Assembly: GCA_944380515.1 (NCBI GenBank)
Contig: CALWHT010000031.1
Span: forward strand, 17,332-81,331
Direction: 5' to 3'
DNA length: 64,000 nucleotides
Source: an uncultured Roseburia sp.
Lineage (GTDB): Bacteria > Bacillota > Clostridia > Lachnospirales > Lachnospiraceae
The translations under genes and the position numbers were made by a program. Position 1 is the first letter of the stretch. Every line of letters begins with the position of its first letter. Below are positions 11,216 to 42,356 of the stretch, in pieces. Below the pieces are notes generated by a model, which saw only the letters and a list, made by a program, of their open reading frames with translations, searched no databases and had not been told where the DNA came from.

Positions 11216-12223
11216 TCATCTTCCTTTATCCAATGCGGCTTTCGAAAGAAACGCCTCCGCCCTGGCAAAATCCTCCCCGCAGGGCGCCGTCACCTCCGTG
11301 CCGTCCGAAAATACCATGCGGTACGCGTGCAGAAGCTGGGAGGTCACACCCGCTTTTTTCCGGAATAACGCGTTGACGTCCGCATCGCCGTACTTTACAT
11401 CCCCGACAATCGGGTGCCCCAAAACGGCGAGCTGCGCCCTGATTTGATGGGAACGCCCCGTAATCAGATGTACTTCCAGCTCGGTATAGCCGTTTAGCAC
11501 CTGCACCGGACGGTATTCTGTCCCAATCCGGCGTGCCTCGTCTTCTCCACTCTTTTCCCTCAGTACCGCAACCTGATTTGTCCGCCTGTCCTTTACCAGC
11601 CAGCCGTCGATACGGGCGCTCTCTAAAACCTCACCTTTAACGATACAGCGGTAATATTTTTGCACAGAACGTTCTTTTAAGGCCTTAGAAAGTTCCTGAA
11701 GTCCCTTTAAGGTCTTTCCCGCTGCCAAAAGCCCTGAGGTATTGCGGTCAAGCCGGTTGCAGACCGATGGCTTAAAGGTAGGGAGCTCCTCCGGCGTAAG
11801 CTTTCCTGCCGCCATAAGCCATGCGAGAATATATTCGTTTGCCGAAACATCGGAGGGCTTTGCCTTCTGGGAAAGCATGCCGGAGGGCTTATTGATGATG
11901 ATTACGTCAGCATCCTCATAAACAACCTGAAGTTCAAGTTCCCCTGACGTGAACCTCCCGGCAAGCTGCTTTAAGCTCTCATATTCGGTAGATGGCTGAC
12001 TGCCCGTGCTGAACTTTTCAAAGGTTTCATCGGAGAGAAACAGTGTCACCCGGTCCTTTTCCCGCAGCTTTTCCGTCCCGTCGGCCTTTTTCCCGTTTAA
12101 AACAATATTCTTTTTCCGCAGCATTTTATACACAAAGCTGCCCGGCGCCTGTCCGAGCAGCTTCTTTAAGTACTTATCGAAGCGCTGTCCGGCCTCGTTG
12201 GTGTTAATTTCAAATTCACGCAT
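11216..12223 (-). CDS. RluA/RluC/RluD family pseudouridine synthase
   Basis: S4-like N-terminus (GQRFDKYL), NKPSG, NRLDRNTSG catalytic Asp, TGRSHQIRAQ. Confidence 0.93.
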   Translation of the reverse strand: MREFEINTNEAGQRFDKYLKKLLGQAPGSFVYKMLRKKNIVLNGKKADGTEKLREKDRVTLFLSDETFEKFSTGSQPSTEYESLKQLAGRFTSGELELQVVYEDADVIIINKPSGMLSQKAKPSDVSANEYILAWLMAAGKLTPEELPTFKPSVCNRLDRNTSGLLAAGKTLKGLQELSKALKERSVQKYYRCIVKGEVLESARIDGWLVKDRRTNQVAVLREKSGEDEARRIGTEYRPVQVLNGYTELEVHLITGRSHQIRAQLAVLGHPIVGDVKYGDADVNALFRKKAGVTSQLLHAYRMVFSDGTEVTAPCGEDFARAEAFLSKAALDKGR

Positions 12224-19337: not shown

Positions 19338-19892
19338 TCATTTGTTTTTCGTAATAAATGCATGCATATTCGTTTTATAGGTTTTGAGGCGTCCAAGCGA
19401 AAAGCCCAGCTCCTCCAGATAGTCAAAGGTGGTATCAAGCGCCGCCTCGACGATGATGATGCCGCCCTCCTTTAACAGGGACCGCCCGGAAAGCTCCCGG
19501 AGGACCTGCTCCTCAAGTCCCTGTCCGTACGGCGGATCCATAAAAATAACATCAAACCGGTATCTGCCCTCCATGCTGCGGATGGCGGAAAGCACGTCCG
19601 CCTGATAAAGCTTCGTCCTGTCCGTAAATTTCGTAAACCGGATATTTTCCTCAATACAGGCTGCGGCTTTTTTGTCATGCTCCACAAAGACGGCGTACGC
19701 CGCGCCCCGGCTGACCGCCTCCAGCCCAATCTGCCCGCTTCCCGCAAACAAATCCAGAAAATAGCTGCCCGGAACCTCATCCTGTATAATGTTAAACAGC
19801 GTCTCCTTAATCCGGTCAGTCGTCGGTCTCGTGTCCATGCCAGCAACCGTCTTCAGGGGAAGGCTCCTGGCCGTTCCGGCAATAATTCTCAT
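19338..19892 (-). CDS. rsmD: 16S rRNA m2G966 methyltransferase
   Basis: MRIIAG, TRPTTDRIKETLFN, LDLFAGSG and DPPY motifs. Confidence 0.95.
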   Translation of the reverse strand: MRIIAGTARSLPLKTVAGMDTRPTTDRIKETLFNIIQDEVPGSYFLDLFAGSGQIGLEAVSRGAAYAVFVEHDKKAAACIEENIRFTKFTDRTKLYQADVLSAIRSMEGRYRFDVIFMDPPYGQGLEEQVLRELSGRSLLKEGGIIIVEAALDTTFDYLEELGFSLGRLKTYKTNMHAFITKNK

Positions 19893-19918
19893 ATGAATCC
19901 TCCATTCCGGGGCGGAAA

Positions 19919-20464
19919 TTATTTTCCGTCTCCCTCATACTGCGCCACAATACGCTCCCCGAGCAAAGACAGCGCACGCTCCGCCGCCGCTCTCCTTACT
20001 TCCATCCGTCCTCCGGGGAACACATGACGTTCCGTCACCGTCTTTCCGTTTAAACGGCAGCCGATAAACACAAGTCCCACGGGACACTCCTTTGTCCCGC
20101 CGTCCGGTCCGGCCACTCCTGTTACGGAAAGCGCCGCCGCCGTCCGGGCTGTCTCTGCCGCGCCGTCCGCCATGGCCGCGGCTGTCTGCGCGCTGACCAC
20201 ACCGTAGGTATCAATGGTCTCTTTGCTGACATGAATCATCTTTACCTTTGCCGCGTCCGAATACGTGACATAGCCCTCCTGGAAAAACTCGGACATTCCC
20301 GGCACATTGATAAGCGTCGACGCTATCATGCCGCCGGTCGCCGATTCGGCCGTTGTCACCGTAATTTGATATTTTTTTAACAATCTGTAAATGGAATATT
20401 CCAGCGGTTCCCGCCCCTCTCGGGAAACACGGAAATCACTGGAACCCTCAATTTTCTCTGTCAA
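19919..20464 (-). CDS. CinA C-terminal domain / NMN deamidase (PncC-like)
   Basis: TAESATGG, GYVTYS, GVVS, TGVAGPDGG and PVGLV motifs; no N-terminal CinA domains. Confidence 0.88.
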   Translation of the reverse strand: MTEKIEGSSDFRVSREGREPLEYSIYRLLKKYQITVTTAESATGGMIASTLINVPGMSEFFQEGYVTYSDAAKVKMIHVSKETIDTYGVVSAQTAAAMADGAAETARTAAALSVTGVAGPDGGTKECPVGLVFIGCRLNGKTVTERHVFPGGRMEVRRAAAERALSLLGERIVAQYEGDGK

Positions 20465-24558: not shown

Positions 24559-24587
24559 ATTATAAAACTAATTTGAGGGGAAGTCAA
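24559..24587 (-). promoter_or_regulatory. Sigma-A promoter for the yicC-remA-gmk-rpoZ operon
   Basis: TTGACT-N17-TATAAT on the minus strand. Confidence 0.75.
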
Positions 24588-25077
24588 CATTTCGTTTTTC
24601 GGCTCCGCCCTGTCCCTGCTGTCCGAATACACAGGACGCAAGTTCTTTGTAATTTTGAAATCCATATAAAAGATACCGTTCAGACTGATATATAATATAG
24701 AAGTGGTCCGTCCCGCACAAAGAATGTAACGCTTCCCTGTCCTTTCTCGGCAGAAGCAAAAAGACCCGTTCCGCCGTTTTCGAACCAGGCTCCTGCTCCG
24801 CATAATCCCCGCCTTTTTTATTTTCCGGATAAAGCCTTCCGCTTTCACTGCGGCAGCCGTATACGGTTATCTCACGGCCGCAGACCGCCTTAAGCTTCCC
24901 GGCACTGCCCTCCACCGCATAGCCGGTCTTAATCCGGCACTCCTTTAAAGCATCGCAGATTCTCTGAAATTCCCGATATTCGTCCGCGTGCTCGAGGACG
25001 CAGAGGCAAAGGAAACAGACGAACGCCGCGGTGAGCAATGCCAGCACGGATTTTCCGCAGATATCCCTGTTTTTCAT
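24568..25077 (-). CDS. Hypothetical secreted or membrane-anchored protein
   Basis: 169-aa ORF with an N-terminal signal/anchor (VLALLTAAFVCFLCLCVL); no recognisable domain. Confidence 0.55.
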   Translation of the reverse strand: MKNRDICGKSVLALLTAAFVCFLCLCVLEHADEYREFQRICDALKECRIKTGYAVEGSAGKLKAVCGREITVYGCRSESGRLYPENKKGGDYAEQEPGSKTAERVFLLLPRKDREALHSLCGTDHFYIIYQSERYLLYGFQNYKELASCVFGQQGQGGAEKRNVDFPSN

Positions 25078-25245
25078 ATGTATAAATCACTGCTTTCGTT
25101 CTTATGATAACTTATCATACCAATTTTCTTTTTTGATGTCAAATTAAATTATCATAATGATAATGAAATATCACAATGAATACTTTACTATACATTACAT
25201 CAATATACAGAGATAAAAACCGTGCAAACCAGAATGGAGTTTGAT

Positions 25246-25527
25246 ATGATCGCAGACAAAATCAAGGAATTAAGACAGGCAAATAATTGGACGCAGGCTG
25301 ACCTCGCCCGAAAACTCAATATTACCAGAAGCAGTGTGAATGCCTGGGAAATGGGAATTTCCGTGCCATCCACCACGTATCTGATCGAGCTCTCCTCCCT
25401 GTTTCAGGTTTCGACGGATTACCTGCTCGGCCTGCCCTGCAACAATACCATTGACATTTCCTCCCTCTCGGAGCGGGAAAGCATTCTCGTCTATGAGCTC
25501 ATCGAATATTTTAAATCACTGAAATAA
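25246..25527 (+). CDS. Xre-family helix-turn-helix regulator
   Basis: IKELRQANNWTQADLARKLNITRSSVNAWEMG..P..LFQVSTDYLLG; SD GGAG upstream. Confidence 0.9.
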   Translation: MIADKIKELRQANNWTQADLARKLNITRSSVNAWEMGISVPSTTYLIELSSLFQVSTDYLLGLPCNNTIDISSLSERESILVYELIEYFKSLK

Positions 25528-25532
25528 AAAAA

Positions 25533-25588
25533 GAGACACCACTGCTGACATATCTCCCACAGGAAATATTTCAGCGGCAGTGTCTCTG
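25533..25588. terminator. Bidirectional terminator between the Xre gene and niaR
   Basis: AGAGACAC-ACTGCTGA / TCAGCGGC-GTGTCTCT inverted repeat between convergent genes. Confidence 0.6.
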
Positions 25589-25598
25589 CAATTTTCTT

Positions 25599-29695: not shown

Positions 29696-30085
29696 TCAGC
29701 GTTCCGGCTTCGCGTTTGTCCGTTCCTCCCTGTGTGCGTCAATCATGCGCTTGATTTCTTCGGCCTCCTGCTCCGTTAAAGTTTTTCCGCCTCCCAAAAA
29801 GGCCGCGATAAACTTCGGCAGAGAGCCTCCGAAGGTACGTTCCAGAAAATAATCCGATTCCTCTCTCTGGCAGCGCTCCTGCTCTACCAAAACCGTCACC
29901 AGCGACGACTCATTTCGGATAAAGCCTCTCTGGCAGAGCTTTTTGATTACCGTATAGGTCGTTGATTTTTTCCAGCCCAGCTTATCGGCACAAAGCTTCA
30001 CCAGTTCCCCCGAGCTCACCGGGGCATGCTCCCATACAATCGTCATAAATTTATAATCGCTGTCGCACAGCTTTAAATCTTCCAT
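29696..30085 (-). CDS. BlaI/MecI/CopY family repressor
   Basis: KFMTIVWE, WKKSTTYTVIKKLCQRGFI and FLERTFGGSL motifs. Confidence 0.92.
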   Translation of the reverse strand: MEDLKLCDSDYKFMTIVWEHAPVSSGELVKLCADKLGWKKSTTYTVIKKLCQRGFIRNESSLVTVLVEQERCQREESDYFLERTFGGSLPKFIAAFLGGGKTLTEQEAEEIKRMIDAHREERTNAKPER

Positions 30086-30222
30086 ATAATCTCCATTCCG
30101 GAGCGTTTTACGCGACGGGGCGACGCAAATCTTCAATTTGCGTCTGCCATCAGGGCTTATTTGTGACGCTCCGGCACAAATAGCCGTGCGCAAAATAAGC
30201 TATCAAGCTTATTTTGCACACT
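30086..30222 (-). repeat. Structured intergenic repeat, copy A (between the M56 gene and blaI)
   Basis: Shares identical blocks of 35 nt (30087-30121), 41 nt (30124-30164) and 24 nt (30192-30215) with 42184-42356. Confidence 0.95.
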
Positions 30223-31872: not shown

Positions 31873-33672
31873 TTATGAAACGAGCTGCTCCATCTCGTCA
31901 AGCACCCCGCCGAACACATCAAGGGCCTCCTGAATCGGAGCCGGCGTTTCAAGATTCACGCCCGCAATTTTAAGCAGCTCTACCGGCGCCTTGGAACAGC
32001 CGCCCGATAAAAACTTCTTATACCGTTCCACGGCCGGAGCGCCCTCTTTTAAGATTGCATGGGCGATGGCCACCGCCGAAGAAAATCCGGTCGCATACTG
32101 ATATACATAGAAATTGTAGTAAAAATGCGGAATCCTTGCCCACTCATAGGCAATCTCGGGATCCGACACCATATCCGGGCCGTAATATTTGCTGTTCAAA
32201 TCGTAGTAGACCTTGCACAGTGTTTCCGCCGTCAGGCTTTCGCCCTCCTCCGCCATTTTGTTGGTCTGCATCTCATATTCCGCAAACATGGTCTGACGGT
32301 ATACGGTTCCCTTAAAGCTGTCGAGGTAATGATTCAGCAGATAAGCGCGCTCCTTTTTATCCTCCGTATTTTTCAGCAGATATTCCATCAAAAGCACTTC
32401 ATTGCAGGTGGATGCCACCTCAGCCACAAATATCTTATACTGGGAATAGATATAGGGCTGCGCCGCATTGGAATAATAGGAATGCATGGCATGTCCCATC
32501 TCATGGGCCAGCGTAAACATATTGTCCAGCGTATCATTATGGTTTAAAAGCACGTAAGGGTGTGTGCCGAAGGCCCCCGCCGAATAAGCGCCGCTGCGTT
32601 TTCCCTCATTCTCATAAACGTCAATCCAGCGGTTTTCAAAGCCCTCCTTCACCTTCGCCACATAATCCTCACCAAGAGGAGCCAGCGCCTTTAACACGGT
32701 CTCCTTCGCTTCCTCAAAGGAAATCTTTTTTGCCGCGTCCGGAATCATCGGCGTATAGACATCATACATATGAAGCTCGTCAACGCCGAGGCATTTTTTG
32801 CGCAGGCGCACATAACGGTGCATTTTATCCATGTTTCGGTTGACCGTCTCAATCAGATTGTGATAAACCGAGGGCGATACGTTGTTGGCGTCCACGGCCG
32901 CCTCCAGCGTGGACGCATAGTGCCTCGCGCCCGCATAAAACATCTGCTGCTTCACCTGTCCGCTGTACAGGGCTGCCAGCGTATTCGCATATTGCTGATA
33001 TACCTTATAATAATTTTCAAAAGCATCCTTTCTGACACGGCGGTCCGAAGACTCCAGGGTCGGGACAAAATTGCCGTGTGACAGGCGCATGTGCTCTCCC
33101 TGCTCATCCGTAATCTCCGGGAAAACAAAGTCCGCATTATTGATAATCGAATACACCTGCCCGGCGGTTTCCGCCATATCCCCGGTCATTGCCACAAGCT
33201 TTTCCTGCTCCGCGGAAAGGATATGCGGCCTGGTGCGCTCGATTTCCTCCAACTGCTTCCGGTAAAGCTCCAGCGCCGGAAGCTCCTTCAAATATCCCTC
33301 CAGCACCTGGCTGTCTACAGCAAGAATTTCCGGAACAATAAACGCTGTTTTGCTGGAAAGCTCCGTCGCCAGGGCATACATTTTCTGGGACATTGCCTGA
33401 TGCGCCGTATTTTTCTGGTCTTCGTCAAACAGCCTCTCCGCATAATTAAAGGCGAAATCAAGCTTCTGCTCCGCCGCCGCCGCGCGCTCAAGGACAAAAA
33501 GCAGATTTTCGGCAGAAGCGGCAGCCTTTCCCTCCATGGAAGCGATTTCCTCCATCAGCCCCGCAAGCGCCTTCAAATCCTCCTTCCACGCATCCACAGA
33601 CGGATACATGTCCTTTAGGTTCCATGTATATTCTTCTTTTACTTCACTTCTTTTTAATAATTCCTTTGCCAT
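31873..33672 (-). CDS. pepF: Oligoendopeptidase F (M3B)
   Basis: EEYTWNLKDMY, GKRSGAYS, TLAHEMGHAMHS (HExxH), VAEVAS and RIPHFYYNFYVYQYATG motifs. Confidence 0.96.
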   Translation of the reverse strand: MAKELLKRSEVKEEYTWNLKDMYPSVDAWKEDLKALAGLMEEIASMEGKAAASAENLLFVLERAAAAEQKLDFAFNYAERLFDEDQKNTAHQAMSQKMYALATELSSKTAFIVPEILAVDSQVLEGYLKELPALELYRKQLEEIERTRPHILSAEQEKLVAMTGDMAETAGQVYSIINNADFVFPEITDEQGEHMRLSHGNFVPTLESSDRRVRKDAFENYYKVYQQYANTLAALYSGQVKQQMFYAGARHYASTLEAAVDANNVSPSVYHNLIETVNRNMDKMHRYVRLRKKCLGVDELHMYDVYTPMIPDAAKKISFEEAKETVLKALAPLGEDYVAKVKEGFENRWIDVYENEGKRSGAYSAGAFGTHPYVLLNHNDTLDNMFTLAHEMGHAMHSYYSNAAQPYIYSQYKIFVAEVASTCNEVLLMEYLLKNTEDKKERAYLLNHYLDSFKGTVYRQTMFAEYEMQTNKMAEEGESLTAETLCKVYYDLNSKYYGPDMVSDPEIAYEWARIPHFYYNFYVYQYATGFSSAVAIAHAILKEGAPAVERYKKFLSGGCSKAPVELLKIAGVNLETPAPIQEALDVFGGVLDEMEQLVS

Positions 33673-33757
33673 AAAAAACCTCCAGTTCTGTTTTGTACAT
33701 CCATCCTCTAATTTACGCTCCGGCACCCAAATTGTAAAGAAAAAACTGCGAAAAAAA

Positions 33758-39465: not shown

Positions 39466-40077
39466 TTATTTTACTCCGATTTCCCGCAGGTCTTCCGCAC
39501 GGATGTCAGGAAACAAAACGACGGGTAACGGACTGGCGGGGTGATCCCCAAGCATTTTTTCCATCCATACCATATCGTACCATCTTCCGAATTTATAACC
39601 GCATTTATGAAATTTTCCAACCATGCGGTAGCCCATATGCGCATGGAACTCTACGCTGTTTTTCGTCAGGTATTCATCCTCCGTTTCCGGATAGCCGATG
39701 CAGGCGTTCAGATTGAGAATATGCTGCATTTTGGAAATCTCCTCCAGAGCCCGGTACAGCCTCCTGCCAAGTCCCATTTTCCGTTTGTTTTCTTTCAGAT
39801 AGATAGAAACTTCCGCCGCCCAGCCGTAGGCCGCCCTTCCGACAAACGGCCCCGTATAGGCATAGCCGAGTATTTCCCCGTCTTCTTCCGCAACAATGTA
39901 AGGATATTTTTCTTTCGTCTTTCTCATTCTCTCCTGAAATTCCCCGACATCCGGCAGGTCATATTCAAACGTAATTGCCGTTTTGGTTACATACGGCTCA
40001 TAGATATTTTGAATTTGCACTGCATCGTCGGGCAGGGCAATCCGGATGCAAATATTATCTTTTTCCATTATTTTCAC
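39466..40077 (-). CDS. GNAT acetyltransferase, phosphinothricin/methionine-sulfoximine (YncA/Pat) type
   Basis: TAITFEY, YPYIVAE..GEILGYAY, RAAYGW..EVSIY and GYKFGRWYDMVW motifs. Confidence 0.88.
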   Translation of the reverse strand: MKIMEKDNICIRIALPDDAVQIQNIYEPYVTKTAITFEYDLPDVGEFQERMRKTKEKYPYIVAEEDGEILGYAYTGPFVGRAAYGWAAEVSIYLKENKRKMGLGRRLYRALEEISKMQHILNLNACIGYPETEDEYLTKNSVEFHAHMGYRMVGKFHKCGYKFGRWYDMVWMEKMLGDHPASPLPVVLFPDIRAEDLREIGVK

Positions 40078-40125
40078 TCTTCCTTCATCCTGAAGCGTTT
40101 ACAGTAAGAAATACCCACAGCCGTC

Positions 40126-42183
40126 TCAAAGATTCAGCCGGTTATTCCTCTCCTGCAAAAACCGCTCCATATAATGACGCAGCCTTTCGTTGTTTTCTCC
40201 GGACAGATCGGGGTCTTCCTTTAAAAGCTTTTGTACCTCGCCGGACGCCTGCTGTAAGACGGACGCGTCCTGATAAATATCTGCGAGCAGAAATTCCATT
40301 TCGCCGGACTGGCGGATCCCAAAAAAATCTCCCGGCCCGCGGAGCTTTAAATCCTCCGCCGCAATCTGAAATCCGTCGTTGGATTTGTTGAGGATGTCCA
40401 GCCGTTTCGCCGCGTTTTTGCTGTCCGAGCAGTTTATCATGATACAGTAGGACTGTGCGTCTCCTCTGCCGACACGCCCCCGAAGCTGATGAAGCTGCGC
40501 CAGTCCGAAGCGCTCCGCATTTTCAATCAGCATCACCGTCGCATTCGGCACATTGACGCCGACCTCCACCACCGTGGTGGAAACCAGCACCTGTATCTCA
40601 TTTTTCACAAACTGTTCCATAATCCGATTTTTCTGTTCGGCCTTCATCTGTCCGTGCAAAAGCCCGACGGTAATGTCATCGGAAAGCCCCGCACGCAGTT
40701 TTTTCACGTAATCCGTAACGTTCTCGGCCTCTATCTGCTCACTCTCCTCAACAAGCGGACAGATGACATAGGCCTGATGCCCTTTTTTCACCTCATTTTC
40801 GATAAACGCATACGCTTTGGGACGGTATCTTGTATCAACGACGCAGTTTTTCACCGCAAGCCTCCTTGCCGGGACCTCATCAATGACCGAAATATCCAAA
40901 TCCCCATAGATAATAATCGCAAGCGTCCTTGGTATGGGCGTGGCGCTCATCACCAGCACATGAGGCTCGGTTCCCTTCGCCGCAAGCGTCTCCCTCTGGC
41001 GGACACCGAATCGGTGCTGCTCGTCCGTAATCACAAGCGCAAGGTTCTGATAAATGGCTTTCTCCTGGATGAGCGCATGCGTCCCGACAATCATGGCATT
41101 CGGATAAACCTCAAGCGCCTCGTAGGCAAGCCGTTTCTGCCTTGCAGTCATCGAGCCGGTCAAAAGCACCACGGGAAATTTCAGTCCGAACTGCCTGCAC
41201 AGCTCCTGATAGGATTCGTAATGCTGCCTTGCCAGCACCTCGGTAGGCGCCATAATCGCGGACTGGTAGCCGTTGTGCGCCGCGTCCGCCATCGCGAGAA
41301 ACGCCACAATCGTTTTCCCGGAGCCGACGTCTCCCTGTATCAGACGCTGCATGACCGTCTCCGAGCGCATATCGCGCTTTACCTCGGAGAGCGCCCGTTT
41401 CTGCGCGCCGGTCAGTTCATAGGGAAGCTGCTTTATGAGTCGCTCCGTAAAATCATCGTCCGCAAAGATAAATTCGTTTTTTTCCCTGGCGCGCTTTTCC
41501 TTATGATACTGCATACTTAACACAAAGAGGAAAAACTCGTCAAATACCAGACGCTTTCTCGCTCCGATCAGCGTATCCATATCCGCCGGAAAATGTATCT
41601 GTCCGATAGCGTAATTATATTCGCAAAGCCCGTATTTTTCCCGGATATCGGCGGGCAGATAATCGACAAAAAGATTCTCGTCCCCTAAAGCCGCGCGCAC
41701 GGTTTTCGTGACGAGATTGTTGGAAAGTCCGTTTGTCAACGCATAAACCGGCAGAAACACCTGCTCCATCACCCGATACTGCTCCTCGGAATAGACCGCA
41801 GGCTGTTCCATCGTAAGCCTGCCGTTTTTTTTCACGGCCTTTCCGTAAAAAATATAGGTATTCCCAACTTTGAGGTTATTTTTCATATAGGGCATGCGGT
41901 ACCACACCAGCTCCATGGAAACACCGAGTTTTCCGATGACCGCGACCGTTATCTGCATGGAGCGCACCTTTCTTACGACGGGCGTTTTCGTAATCCTTCC
42001 GAGCACTGCAGCTGTCTCGCCGTCCGTGACCTCATCCACATGCTTCGCCTCGGGATAACGTATGTACGTCCGGGGATAATGAAGGAGTATATCACCTACG
42101 GTGTATACTCCTATCTTGTGAAATAATTCTTCTGTTTTCGCGCCAACGCCTTTGATTTCTGAAATGGAAGAATCCCTGTTCAT
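40126..42183 (-). CDS. recG: ATP-dependent DNA helicase RecG
   Basis: RLVFDEFF, RLIQGDVGSGKT, DEQHRFGV, MSATPIPRTL, RFGLAQLHQLRGRVGRG and DLKLRGPG motifs. True start ATG 42183; the longer ORF reads through the repeat. Confidence 0.97.
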   Translation of the reverse strand: MNRDSSISEIKGVGAKTEELFHKIGVYTVGDILLHYPRTYIRYPEAKHVDEVTDGETAAVLGRITKTPVVRKVRSMQITVAVIGKLGVSMELVWYRMPYMKNNLKVGNTYIFYGKAVKKNGRLTMEQPAVYSEEQYRVMEQVFLPVYALTNGLSNNLVTKTVRAALGDENLFVDYLPADIREKYGLCEYNYAIGQIHFPADMDTLIGARKRLVFDEFFLFVLSMQYHKEKRAREKNEFIFADDDFTERLIKQLPYELTGAQKRALSEVKRDMRSETVMQRLIQGDVGSGKTIVAFLAMADAAHNGYQSAIMAPTEVLARQHYESYQELCRQFGLKFPVVLLTGSMTARQKRLAYEALEVYPNAMIVGTHALIQEKAIYQNLALVITDEQHRFGVRQRETLAAKGTEPHVLVMSATPIPRTLAIIIYGDLDISVIDEVPARRLAVKNCVVDTRYRPKAYAFIENEVKKGHQAYVICPLVEESEQIEAENVTDYVKKLRAGLSDDITVGLLHGQMKAEQKNRIMEQFVKNEIQVLVSTTVVEVGVNVPNATVMLIENAERFGLAQLHQLRGRVGRGDAQSYCIMINCSDSKNAAKRLDILNKSNDGFQIAAEDLKLRGPGDFFGIRQSGEMEFLLADIYQDASVLQQASGEVQKLLKEDPDLSGENNERLRHYMERFLQERNNRLNL

Positions 42184-42356
42184 ATTAATCTCCATTCCGG
42201 AGCGTTTTACGCGACGGGGCAGATTTTCTTTCAGAAAATCGCAAATCTTCAATTTGCGTCTGCCATCAGGGCTTATTTGTAACGCTCCAGTACAATATAA
42301 CCAACGCAAACAAGTTTGCGTGTGAAAAATAAGCTATCAAGCTTATTTTTCACACT
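42184..42356 (-). repeat. Structured intergenic repeat, copy B (between fakA and recG)
   Basis: Same three identical blocks as copy A (42186-42220, 42240-42280, 42326-42349) plus two extra small palindromes. Confidence 0.95.

Follow-up and report, generated by a model that had tools for sequence, protein, structure and literature searches.

A structured intergenic repeat of gut Lachnospiraceae that ends at start codons and appears to supply the ribosome-binding site

The window (the whole stretch of 64,000 nucleotides that was analysed, from an uncultured Roseburia sp. that inhabits the chicken gut) carries on its minus strand a gene encoding a BlaI/MecI/CopY-family repressor and the recG gene, the latter with a DAK2/FakA-like yloV homologue upstream of it. 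Both genes are directly preceded by a copy of the same non-coding repeat, called here copy A (before the blaI-like gene) and copy B (before recG). The two copies share the 20-mer ACGCTCCGGAATGGAGATTA, which occurs exactly twice in the window (30087-30106 and 42186-42205, both on the minus strand), with none expected in shuffled sequences. This 20-mer ends 1 nt before the blaI-like ATG (30085-30083) and 2 nt before the recG ATG (42183-42181). The features of the window that concern the repeat are the following.

29696..30085, minus strand: gene of the BlaI/MecI/CopY-family repressor (129 aa, PF03965), served by copy A
30086..30221, minus strand: copy A of the repeat, running from GUGUGC through GGAG and the AUUAU spacer; covariance-model score of 126 bits
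30186..30221, minus strand: hairpin H0 of copy A, 16 bp with a UGAU loop; its stem changes are compensatory among copies
30154..30185, minus strand: hairpin P1 of copy A, with the loop L1, CCGGAGCGU, at 30166-30174
30114..30151, minus strand: P2 of copy A (GAUGG/CCGUC), enclosing the variable-arm hairpin P2a (30122-30144)
30098..30106, minus strand: tail of copy A, ACGCUCCGG, pairing with the loop L1 as the long-range (pseudoknot) helix
30091..30094, minus strand: GGAG Shine-Dalgarno of copy A, with which the conserved part of the repeat ends, 5 nt from the blaI-like ATG
40126..42183, minus strand: recG (685 aa), served by copy B
42184..42355, minus strand: copy B of the repeat, from a subfamily with two extra hairpins; covariance-model score of 96 bits
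42320..42355, minus strand: H0 of copy B, a perfect 16-bp hairpin
42270..42302, minus strand: P1 of copy B, closed by an A-U pair, with the loop CUGGAGCGU at 42282-42290
42197..42205, minus strand: tail of copy B, ACGCUCCGG; the minimum-free-energy fold itself contains the loop-tail helix
42190-42193, minus strand: GGAG Shine-Dalgarno of copy B
19899..19910, minus strand: probable solo 3' remnant, CCGGAAUGGAGG, 5 nt before an ATG at 19893-19891
33701..33737, minus strand: possible decayed copy with the 12-mer GUGCCGGAGCGU, below the covariance-model threshold and upstream of a pepF-like ATG at 33672-33670

The RNAs of both copies fold far more stably than shuffled sequences (z about -6.5). A GUG is located at the foot of H0 in copy A, the tail of this copy includes a CUCC anti-Shine-Dalgarno, and copy B presents a small additional hairpin at 42321-42304. 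A covariance-model match at 12107-12208 lies inside coding sequence and was discarded as spurious. The repeat also inflates ORF predictions, as in the case of a 165-aa TTG ORF over blaI.

The original prediction, made from these two copies, held that blaI and recG use an identical Shine-Dalgarno (SD) derived from the element, and this is what is read before both genes: GGAG followed by AUUAU-AUG in copy A and by AUUAAU-AUG in copy B. Its description of P1 was equally accurate. The loop CCGGAGCGU (30174-30166) is 100% complementary over 9 nt to 30106-30098, and in copy B the loop-closing pair is A-U in place of G-C, with a C-to-U change in the loop that leaves a U.G wobble. The linker CCUGAUGG is identical in both copies, and the arm that follows it consists of one hairpin in A and two in B. 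All these parts lie where they had been placed, but the extent of the repeat had been underestimated, as its 5' third, about 36 nt further upstream and corresponding to H0, was missed.

The analysis assembled 47 copies of this family, which is non-coding, multi-copy and 100-175 nt in size. Their sources are 13 genome bins of Lachnospiraceae, three GenBank records from human faeces and a single contig of IMG/VR. The element is portable, as had been proposed, since copies from at least 17 sources precede unrelated genes. An internal 19-mer was found at 44 places in species-representative genomes. Thirty-six of these, complete or partial copies, come from 12 Lachnospiraceae bins assigned to Roseburia, Kineothrix, Lachnospira, Eubacterium and unnamed genera, no single bin having more than about 11; the remaining eight are chance matches in unrelated phyla. 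Fuzzy matching within these loci brought in divergent copies as well as solo 3' ends. Collection through an internal sequence motif implies that highly divergent or 3'-only copies are under-sampled, and the identity of the copy A core with copies in 11 other species-level bins (92-99%) is biased upward by the exact 19-mer that the search required. Copy B is 94% identical to L011 (copies are cited by their locus labels) over 167 nt, from GUGUG to GGAG, and beyond these limits both sequences are unrelated.

Regarding mobile vehicles, blastn of phage records retrieved three human-faecal contigs with a subfamily that is 74-78% identical (L131-133) and stands before bacterial genes, for instance an enolase-like ORF. 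These records contain bacterial housekeeping genes and therefore do not speak for a phage vehicle. In IMG/VR a degenerate pattern gave 78 matches, 77 of them in an unrelated phage gene family, leaving one subfamily member (L204); no copy of the main subfamily was found in IMG/VR, and no copy of the repeat was found in the plasmid search. Depth summed over the element, measured in four DNA metagenomes, was 20-50 times that of its flanks (8-10 times for single exact 47-mers), which suggests that the window organism carries roughly 20-50 copies, that is, tens per genome. Metagenome assemblies break at every copy. Rfam 15 gave no match across the window at gathering scores, and around copy A only a chance match (E=3.9) with permissive settings; nothing was obtained for the human-gut subfamily either. 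The literature search found no description of an SD-bearing repeat that abuts start codons, and the family appears to be undescribed so far.

The conserved unit starts with (UA)GUGUGAAAAAU and ends with CCGGAAUGGAG. A long ORF begins 5-12 nt past the terminal GGAG in 36 of 43 copies, exactly 6 nt past it in 25, and two further copies keep the 6-nt distance (L014 before a 37-codon ORF, and L043 at a contig end, before a GTG start). The exceptions comprise L001, L018 and L041a, which are decaying and whose gene has its own SD further on; L020, the leading unit in a tandem pair; and L028 and L021, each facing a convergent gene. Apart from these last two, the copies share the orientation of the following gene. 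Conservation among copies reaches through AA(U/C)GG(A/G)G and drops in the spacer. This comparison shows that the predicted SD of the downstream gene is the terminal GGAG of the repeat, usually 6 nt from AUG. The other copies had been checked for random orientation and for distance from start codons, and the idea of an SD supplied by the repeat withstood the check.

The genes located after the copies are unrelated to one another: recG, blaI, xseB, flgG, flagellin, mnmE, topoisomerase, a ROK kinase, a glucokinase-like gene, enolase, response regulators and transporters, among others. On the other side of the element, 20 of 38 copies have a same-strand ORF whose stop codon, often a UAG or UGA inside the conserved 5' end UAGUGUGA, lies at most 50 nt from this end. 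The commonest site is a short gap between two co-directional genes, and some copies are found in long intergenic regions.

Metatranscriptome contigs extend from the element across recG and other genes that follow it, so the element is part of these mRNAs. The element-to-flank depth ratio in RNA was 7-50 (in runs stored as contigs) and did not exceed the DNA ratio; hence, nothing in the depth ratios points to a stable processed fragment. No sigma-70-like promoter was found in the interior of copy A. Its H0 was flagged as terminator-like solely through a weak U-rich tail.

The structure was evaluated in an alignment of 43 copies. In the proposed fold, 95.2% of the cells are paired and 13 pairs changed on both sides, compared with 2.4 in column shuffles, and none of 500 shuffles attained the observed count of double changes; register shifts lower the pairing to 33-46%. 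P1 presents 97.7% of paired cells and 4 pairs with both sides changed. The loop-tail helix alone reaches 97.4% of paired cells, with 5 double-change cells versus 0.8 expected (0 of 500 shuffles), and its compensations are C-G to U-A in L006, L012b and L023a and G-C to A-U in L039c and L019b. H0 covaries as well, retaining 15-17 bp and a YGAW loop despite many paired changes. The arm between P1 and the tail has been lost, shortened or doubled among copies.

The strongest evidence for the predicted loop-tail helix comes from the divergent subfamilies. In L131-133 the loop and tail read CCGCAGGCGU/ACGCCUGCGG versus the standard CCGGAGCGU/ACGCUCCGG, with one flipped and one inserted pair, and form a helix of 10 bp (-20.0 kcal/mol). 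In L204 they read CCGAGAACGU/ACGUUCUCAG, with three changed pairs and one inserted. The formal pair count excludes these subfamilies with a 10-nt loop (MAFFT gaps place them out of register), and their helices are given from direct reading and duplex energy. Furthermore, departures from Watson-Crick pairing favour G.U (44) over A.C (26), with 15 versus 5 in the loop-tail helix, which fits selection on the sense strand. The sequence around the loop, UUUGUGCCG...CGUCACAAA, is invariant, and unpaired GCAGA and GUAAA stretches are also conserved. As a whole, the covariation shows H0, P1, the variable arm and the loop-tail helix to be kept by compensatory substitutions in the sense strand, in agreement with what had been proposed for the pairing of loop and tail.

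When copy A is folded with nested pairs only, GGAG is buried in a CUCC:GGAG hairpin and its chance of being unpaired is 0.14-0.19; with the loop and tail withheld from nested pairing, this chance becomes 0.54-0.89. The loop-tail duplex of copy A was calculated at -16.9 kcal/mol versus 7 kcal/mol lost. In copy B, the effect of removing loop and tail on SD exposure is absent from the folding calculation. The CUCC:GGAG hairpin showed no covariation among copies, and CUCC is absent in L131-133 and L204, which retain the pseudoknot pairing. Hence, the conserved feature is the long-range helix and not an anti-SD switch. Concerning the geometry, in the nested minimum-free-energy folds of copy B and L131 the long-range helix forms at the expense of P1. 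Since the 9-nt loop is fully paired, without linkers, beside an 11-bp P1, both helices may be partly exclusive instead of building a classical H-type pseudoknot, and they could alternate or fray.

Copies have been propagated, as indicated by the recurrence of subfamilies and internal-deletion variants at different loci and in different genera. In fact, the same internal deletion (GAAGAU|AAACGC) is present at two loci of one genome (L020, as L020b, and L043), the subfamily with two extra hairpins stands at recG in the window and at xseB in L011, and extra-hairpin subfamilies reappear at other genes and in other genomes. Some copies (L020 and L016) are tandem or nested.

The loci of related species give some indication of the state before insertion. 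In these species recG follows the yloV homologue after a gap of 10-40 nt with its own SD, for example UAAGAAUGGAGUAAAAAUG or ...AAAAGGAGCAGAUAUG. All of the 80 metagenome recG loci and the 4 further recG contigs are empty, with identities of 43-83%, the nearest recG relatives being at 79-83%. No empty site of the same species was found among the metagenome contigs, which break at the repeat, none of them skipping it. The upstream flank of copy B, GCAGAAGGGAACGA, aligns with GCAGAGAAACGA of L212, and after the aligned stretch L212 has 15 nt of SD and spacer where the window has the element. The element of copy B may have replaced the native SD; in an alternative alignment, the flank would be a decayed native SD. 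The blaI homologues occur in differing gene contexts. Upstream of copy A, AAUUUCAA-AUGGAGAAC matches the native SD region of the blaI homologue L128 (...AUGGAGGAACCU-AUG), and the native SD seems to survive at this locus, 22 nt upstream of the element. No target duplication is visible at copies A and B.

The flank upstream of H0 is nearly always SD-like. It reads GGAG-AUUAGU-GUG AAA AAU, with the SD-like motif 5-6 nt from the second GUG, and mirrors the 3' end, GGAG-AUUAGU-AUG, and the consensus flanks of other copies in the window organism are likewise SD-like and resemble the 3' end. Within loci, the similarity between upstream flank and 3' end showed a modest excess (204 versus 190.9 +/- 4.6; 18 of 5000 permutations). 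The upstream flanks of L016, L012a and L033 resemble collapsed older copies, and such copies could explain this similarity. The SD-like flanks fit a target duplication, an insertion between the native SD-spacer and AUG, or insertions recurring at a junction that an earlier copy had produced.

Considering these data, the repeat of gut Lachnospiraceae is, on balance, probably a portable translation-initiation cassette. Spreading as DNA, the element would reach positions directly 5' of start codons, and its insertion would orphan the native SD upstream (copy A) or replace it (possibly copy B). It would be tolerated because it brings a replacement SD along. The loop-tail helix would impose a definite fold on the RNA segment that leads up to the SD and, in the main subfamily, would also sequester the CUCC that is otherwise able to pair with GGAG. 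Judging from the folding calculations for one copy (A), this fold could act as an insulator and not as a ligand switch, since the SD would stay exposed whatever the flanking sequence.

A more far-reaching version of this idea is possible, and we put it forward only tentatively. The element would home to translation-initiation regions, inserting between the SD-spacer and the start codon and substituting its own structured, pseudoknot-controlled signal for that of the host, and dozens of unrelated genes would come under a common control at the RNA level, exerted via upstream translation, a global factor or temperature. If so, it would represent a new targeting principle for bacterial mobile DNA together with a natural portable riboregulator.

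The hairpins and the loop-tail pairing could also be read as single-stranded DNA signals for a strand-specific HUH/Y1 transposase (IS200/IS605-derived, REP/RAYT). The RNA fold and the SD would then be by-products, and copies would persist only where an SD happens to be restored. Several traits agree with it. Terminal inverted repeats are absent (GUGUGAAAAAU and CCGGAAUGGAG are not complementary, and all inverted repeats are internal hairpins), a perfect palindromic hairpin occupies the extreme 5' end, 21 of 27 copies have a short conserved TA(GT) sequence at their left junction, the structure accommodates G.T and is specific to one strand, and the tandem and nested copies point in the same direction. 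Nevertheless, this explanation seems unlikely, given that a target of 4-5 nt cannot account for about 85% of copies lying 5-12 nt from a start codon, those in long intergenic regions included, and that the element is transcribed in sense orientation. Moreover, no version carrying tnpA, RAYT or tnpB was found in the 44 loci, and the family of IS608 and ISDra2 is not known for a helix of 9-10 bp between a loop and a distal tail. The same 44 loci, of 8 kb each, contained no autonomous longer version or partner gene, and all the H0-like palindromes in them belong to known copies.

The translational switch contemplated in the original prediction has its broader form in a true regulatory RNA (riboswitch, thermosensor or protein-binding operator), where the pseudoknot would leave the SD free and CUCC:GGAG would hide it in response to one global signal. 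A compact fold backed by covariation that ends 3 nt from the SD would suit this function, as would the invariant sequence around the loop and the conserved unpaired stretches, and in the calculations for copy A the nested fold hides the SD that the pseudoknot would free. The switch is plausible in the folding of this copy only; the anti-SD hairpin has no covariation and was lost in L131-133 and L204. In addition, the downstream genes are functionally unrelated, the stems are near-identical between copies and genera, the middle of the element is freely deleted or expanded, and no Rfam model matches, all of which makes a regulatory RNA of this kind quite improbable. Regarding the suggestion of a riboswitch-like ligand sensor, the lack of a common function among the downstream genes and an identity of 92-99% across genera, stems included, argue for a spreading repeat and not for a metabolite riboswitch.

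Very doubtful is a translational-coupling device, in which the GUG at the foot of H0 would start a short leader through H0 and P1, remodelling the fold that controls the downstream SD. The ribosomes would be loaded at the SD-like upstream flank or would be those terminating at UAG/UGA in UAGUGUGA. Such coupling to upstream translation is conceivable because the 3' arm of H0 is complementary to the 3' arm of P1 and could pair with it. In nearly all copies that bear H0, GUG-AAA-AAU is preceded at 5-6 nt by an SD-like GGAG or GGGG, and the start is GUG, AUG or UUG but never CUG. Of 27 copies, 14 contain a frame of 20 codons, VKNKL(D/E)SLFFTRLFVPERHK, that survives two different 18-nt insertions. 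Against this, neither frame nor peptide is conserved in other subfamilies, many copies that look functional have no H0 and no GUG, and so short an open frame could arise by chance in a sequence constrained by structure. Since the frame shifts between subfamilies, conserved coding for a leader peptide or a type I toxin was rejected.

Other assignments were rejected directly: a hammerhead ribozyme (with CUGANGA and GAAA cores), since the element reads CUGAUGG, has no GAAA core and is unmatched by the Rfam hammerhead models; an integron attC site (RYYYAAC ... GTTRRRY), since the ends are not complementary and the copies are dispersed among housekeeping genes; and a group I intron or IStron, by sequence and size.

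Small intergenic repeats are usually viewed as junk or as stabilisers located after genes. This family differs, as the spacing between repeat end and start codon is fixed in about 85% of its copies, which would provide the ribosome-binding site there, and compensatory evolution across genera maintains the adjacent fold. Should the portable cassette be real, dozens of housekeeping genes of abundant gut Firmicutes would be translated from an initiation region acquired with a repeat, and mobile DNA would have an unrecognised route to find, or to survive only at, the junctions with start codons. The element would also constitute a ready-made and naturally tested standard ribosome-binding-site part for Clostridia.

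Among known systems, REP/BIME of E. coli, the enterobacterial ERIC and the pneumococcal BOX repeats are short, non-coding, multi-copy sequences with stable hairpins between co-directional genes. They lie within mRNA and are able to alter the stability or translation of neighbouring genes. The element is like REP, BOX, ERIC and Correia repeats in size, copy number and co-transcription. REP, ERIC and BOX repeats, in contrast, are found behind genes or at any point of the spacer, can have either orientation and contain no SD, and neither a loop-to-tail helix nor a fixed 6-nt distance to the start codon is known for them. Membership of REP/BIME proper, defined by a palindrome of 20-40 nt with a 5' GTAG, often in inverted pairs downstream of genes, was rejected; H0, a palindrome of 36 nt, is always single and always stands on the 5' side of a larger asymmetric unit, ahead of a start codon.

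The Correia elements (CREE) of Neisseria and MITEs such as RUP are non-autonomous elements of 100-160 nt, with tens to hundreds of co-transcribed copies. They bring expression signals to neighbouring genes, in the form of promoters or RNase III sites; an SD next to the start codon is not among these signals. Their ends carry terminal inverted repeats, the target duplication is TA or short, and insertion occurs in either orientation. The present element resembles a classical MITE in being small, non-coding and multi-copy, with subfamilies across many loci; it differs from CREE and RUP, and from the classical definition, by its lack of terminal inverted repeats, and no related autonomous IS was found in the 44 loci of 8 kb.

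Palindrome-associated elements derived from IS200/IS605 lack terminal inverted repeats, carry a hairpin at the end, are strand-specific, have a short conserved sequence at the left junction and insert 3' of a target of 4-5 nt. The 5' H0 and the left TA(GT) fit this group. No transposase partner was found among the 44 loci, the 3' hairpin is set back 35-40 nt from the end, and the SD-like character of the flank extends well past 5 nt. Neither the adjacency to start codons nor a long-range helix of 9-10 bp is known for such elements.

In local architecture the element is closer to certain riboswitches. In the SD-adjacent pseudoknot riboswitches preQ1-II/III and SAM-II/SAM-V a hairpin loop is reported to pair with a strand next to or overlapping the SD, whereby the fold governs the access of the ribosome (PMC11625349, PMC6061858). 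A similar arrangement is predicted here, where the P1 loop pairs with the strand adjacent to the SD. The structure is likewise supported by covariation, but it is not associated with one pathway. Riboswitches precede genes of a single pathway, and their ligand pocket is conserved while the stems drift, whereas the element precedes unrelated genes with near-identical stems.

Engineered initiation cassettes, such as bicistronic designs and insulator parts, are synthetic, self-contained units that can precede any ORF and place an SD at fixed spacing, with an upstream SD, a short leader and shielding from the surrounding sequence. By analogy, the element might be seen as a natural, self-propagating counterpart of them, with a putative insulating effect. 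The element is classed here among the structured intergenic repeats, and its unusual and well-supported trait is the delivery of a putative ribosome-binding site at the start codon.

Besides the two full copies of the repeat in the window, which precede the blaI-like gene and recG, three shorter stretches resemble parts of it:

19891-19920, minus strand: UAAUUUCCGCCCCGGAAUGGAGGAUUCAU-AUG, the SD of another gene, with an 11-12 nt match to the 3' end of the repeat
33670-33737, minus strand: CAAUUUGGGUGCCGGAGCGUAAAUUAGAGGAUGG, upstream of a pepF-like gene, with the 12-mer GUGCCGGAGCGU in common with the repeat
40066-40100, minus strand: GUAAACGCUUCAGGAUGAAGGA, immediately 3' of the recG stop and before the next ATG

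The first of these lies directly after the stop codon of the upstream gene and is likely to be what remains, on its own, of a repeat copy. The same solo 3'-end pattern is found at the genome-bin locus L017, with a 16/16 match. The stretch upstream of the pepF-like gene presents the general arrangement of hairpin P1 followed by the linker, as in the repeat, and looks like a decayed copy. Regarding the stretch after recG, its likeness to the repeat tail is weak (covariance model 10.6 bits, E=0.44).

Variants of the repeat were also found in a single genome, where two loci (L020, 3586-3760, and L043, 6149-6222) carry an identical internal deletion, GAAGAU|AAACGC. L020 presents a second, partial unit, in which the 5' arm of hairpin H0 is joined to the 3' arm of P1 at the common AAAUAAGC, and this points to deletion between the internal direct repeats of the element itself.

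Concerning records labelled as phage or viral, a divergent subfamily of the repeat stands before bacterial housekeeping-type genes in three human faecal GenBank records described as 'UNVERIFIED Bacteriophage sp.' (MT837007, MT836788 and MT838414; L131-L133), with an enolase-like start downstream of it in L132. The likely source of these records is bacterial DNA in virus-like-particle preparations. The CTATTTGTGCCGAAYGCGTCACAAA common to 77 IMG/VR phage contigs (L134-L211), located in a conserved phage region, was rejected as a repeat copy, being an unrelated chance match to the P1 pattern.

The window also differs from the Roseburia bin locus L013, elsewhere 94-96% identical, by a stretch of ~980 bp (24614-25595), which is a small strain-specific islet because it is missing from L013 and holds two ORFs:

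24568-25077, minus strand: ORF of 169 aa
25222-25527, plus strand: XRE-type HTH ORF of 101 aa

Finally, the repeat copy before blaI affects how the reading frame of this gene is delimited:

29696-30193, minus strand: mechanical ORF of 165 aa, with a TTG start within the repeat and in frame into blaI

Database entries for BlaI homologues include several of 147-177 aa that may be comparable over-extensions through repeat copies.
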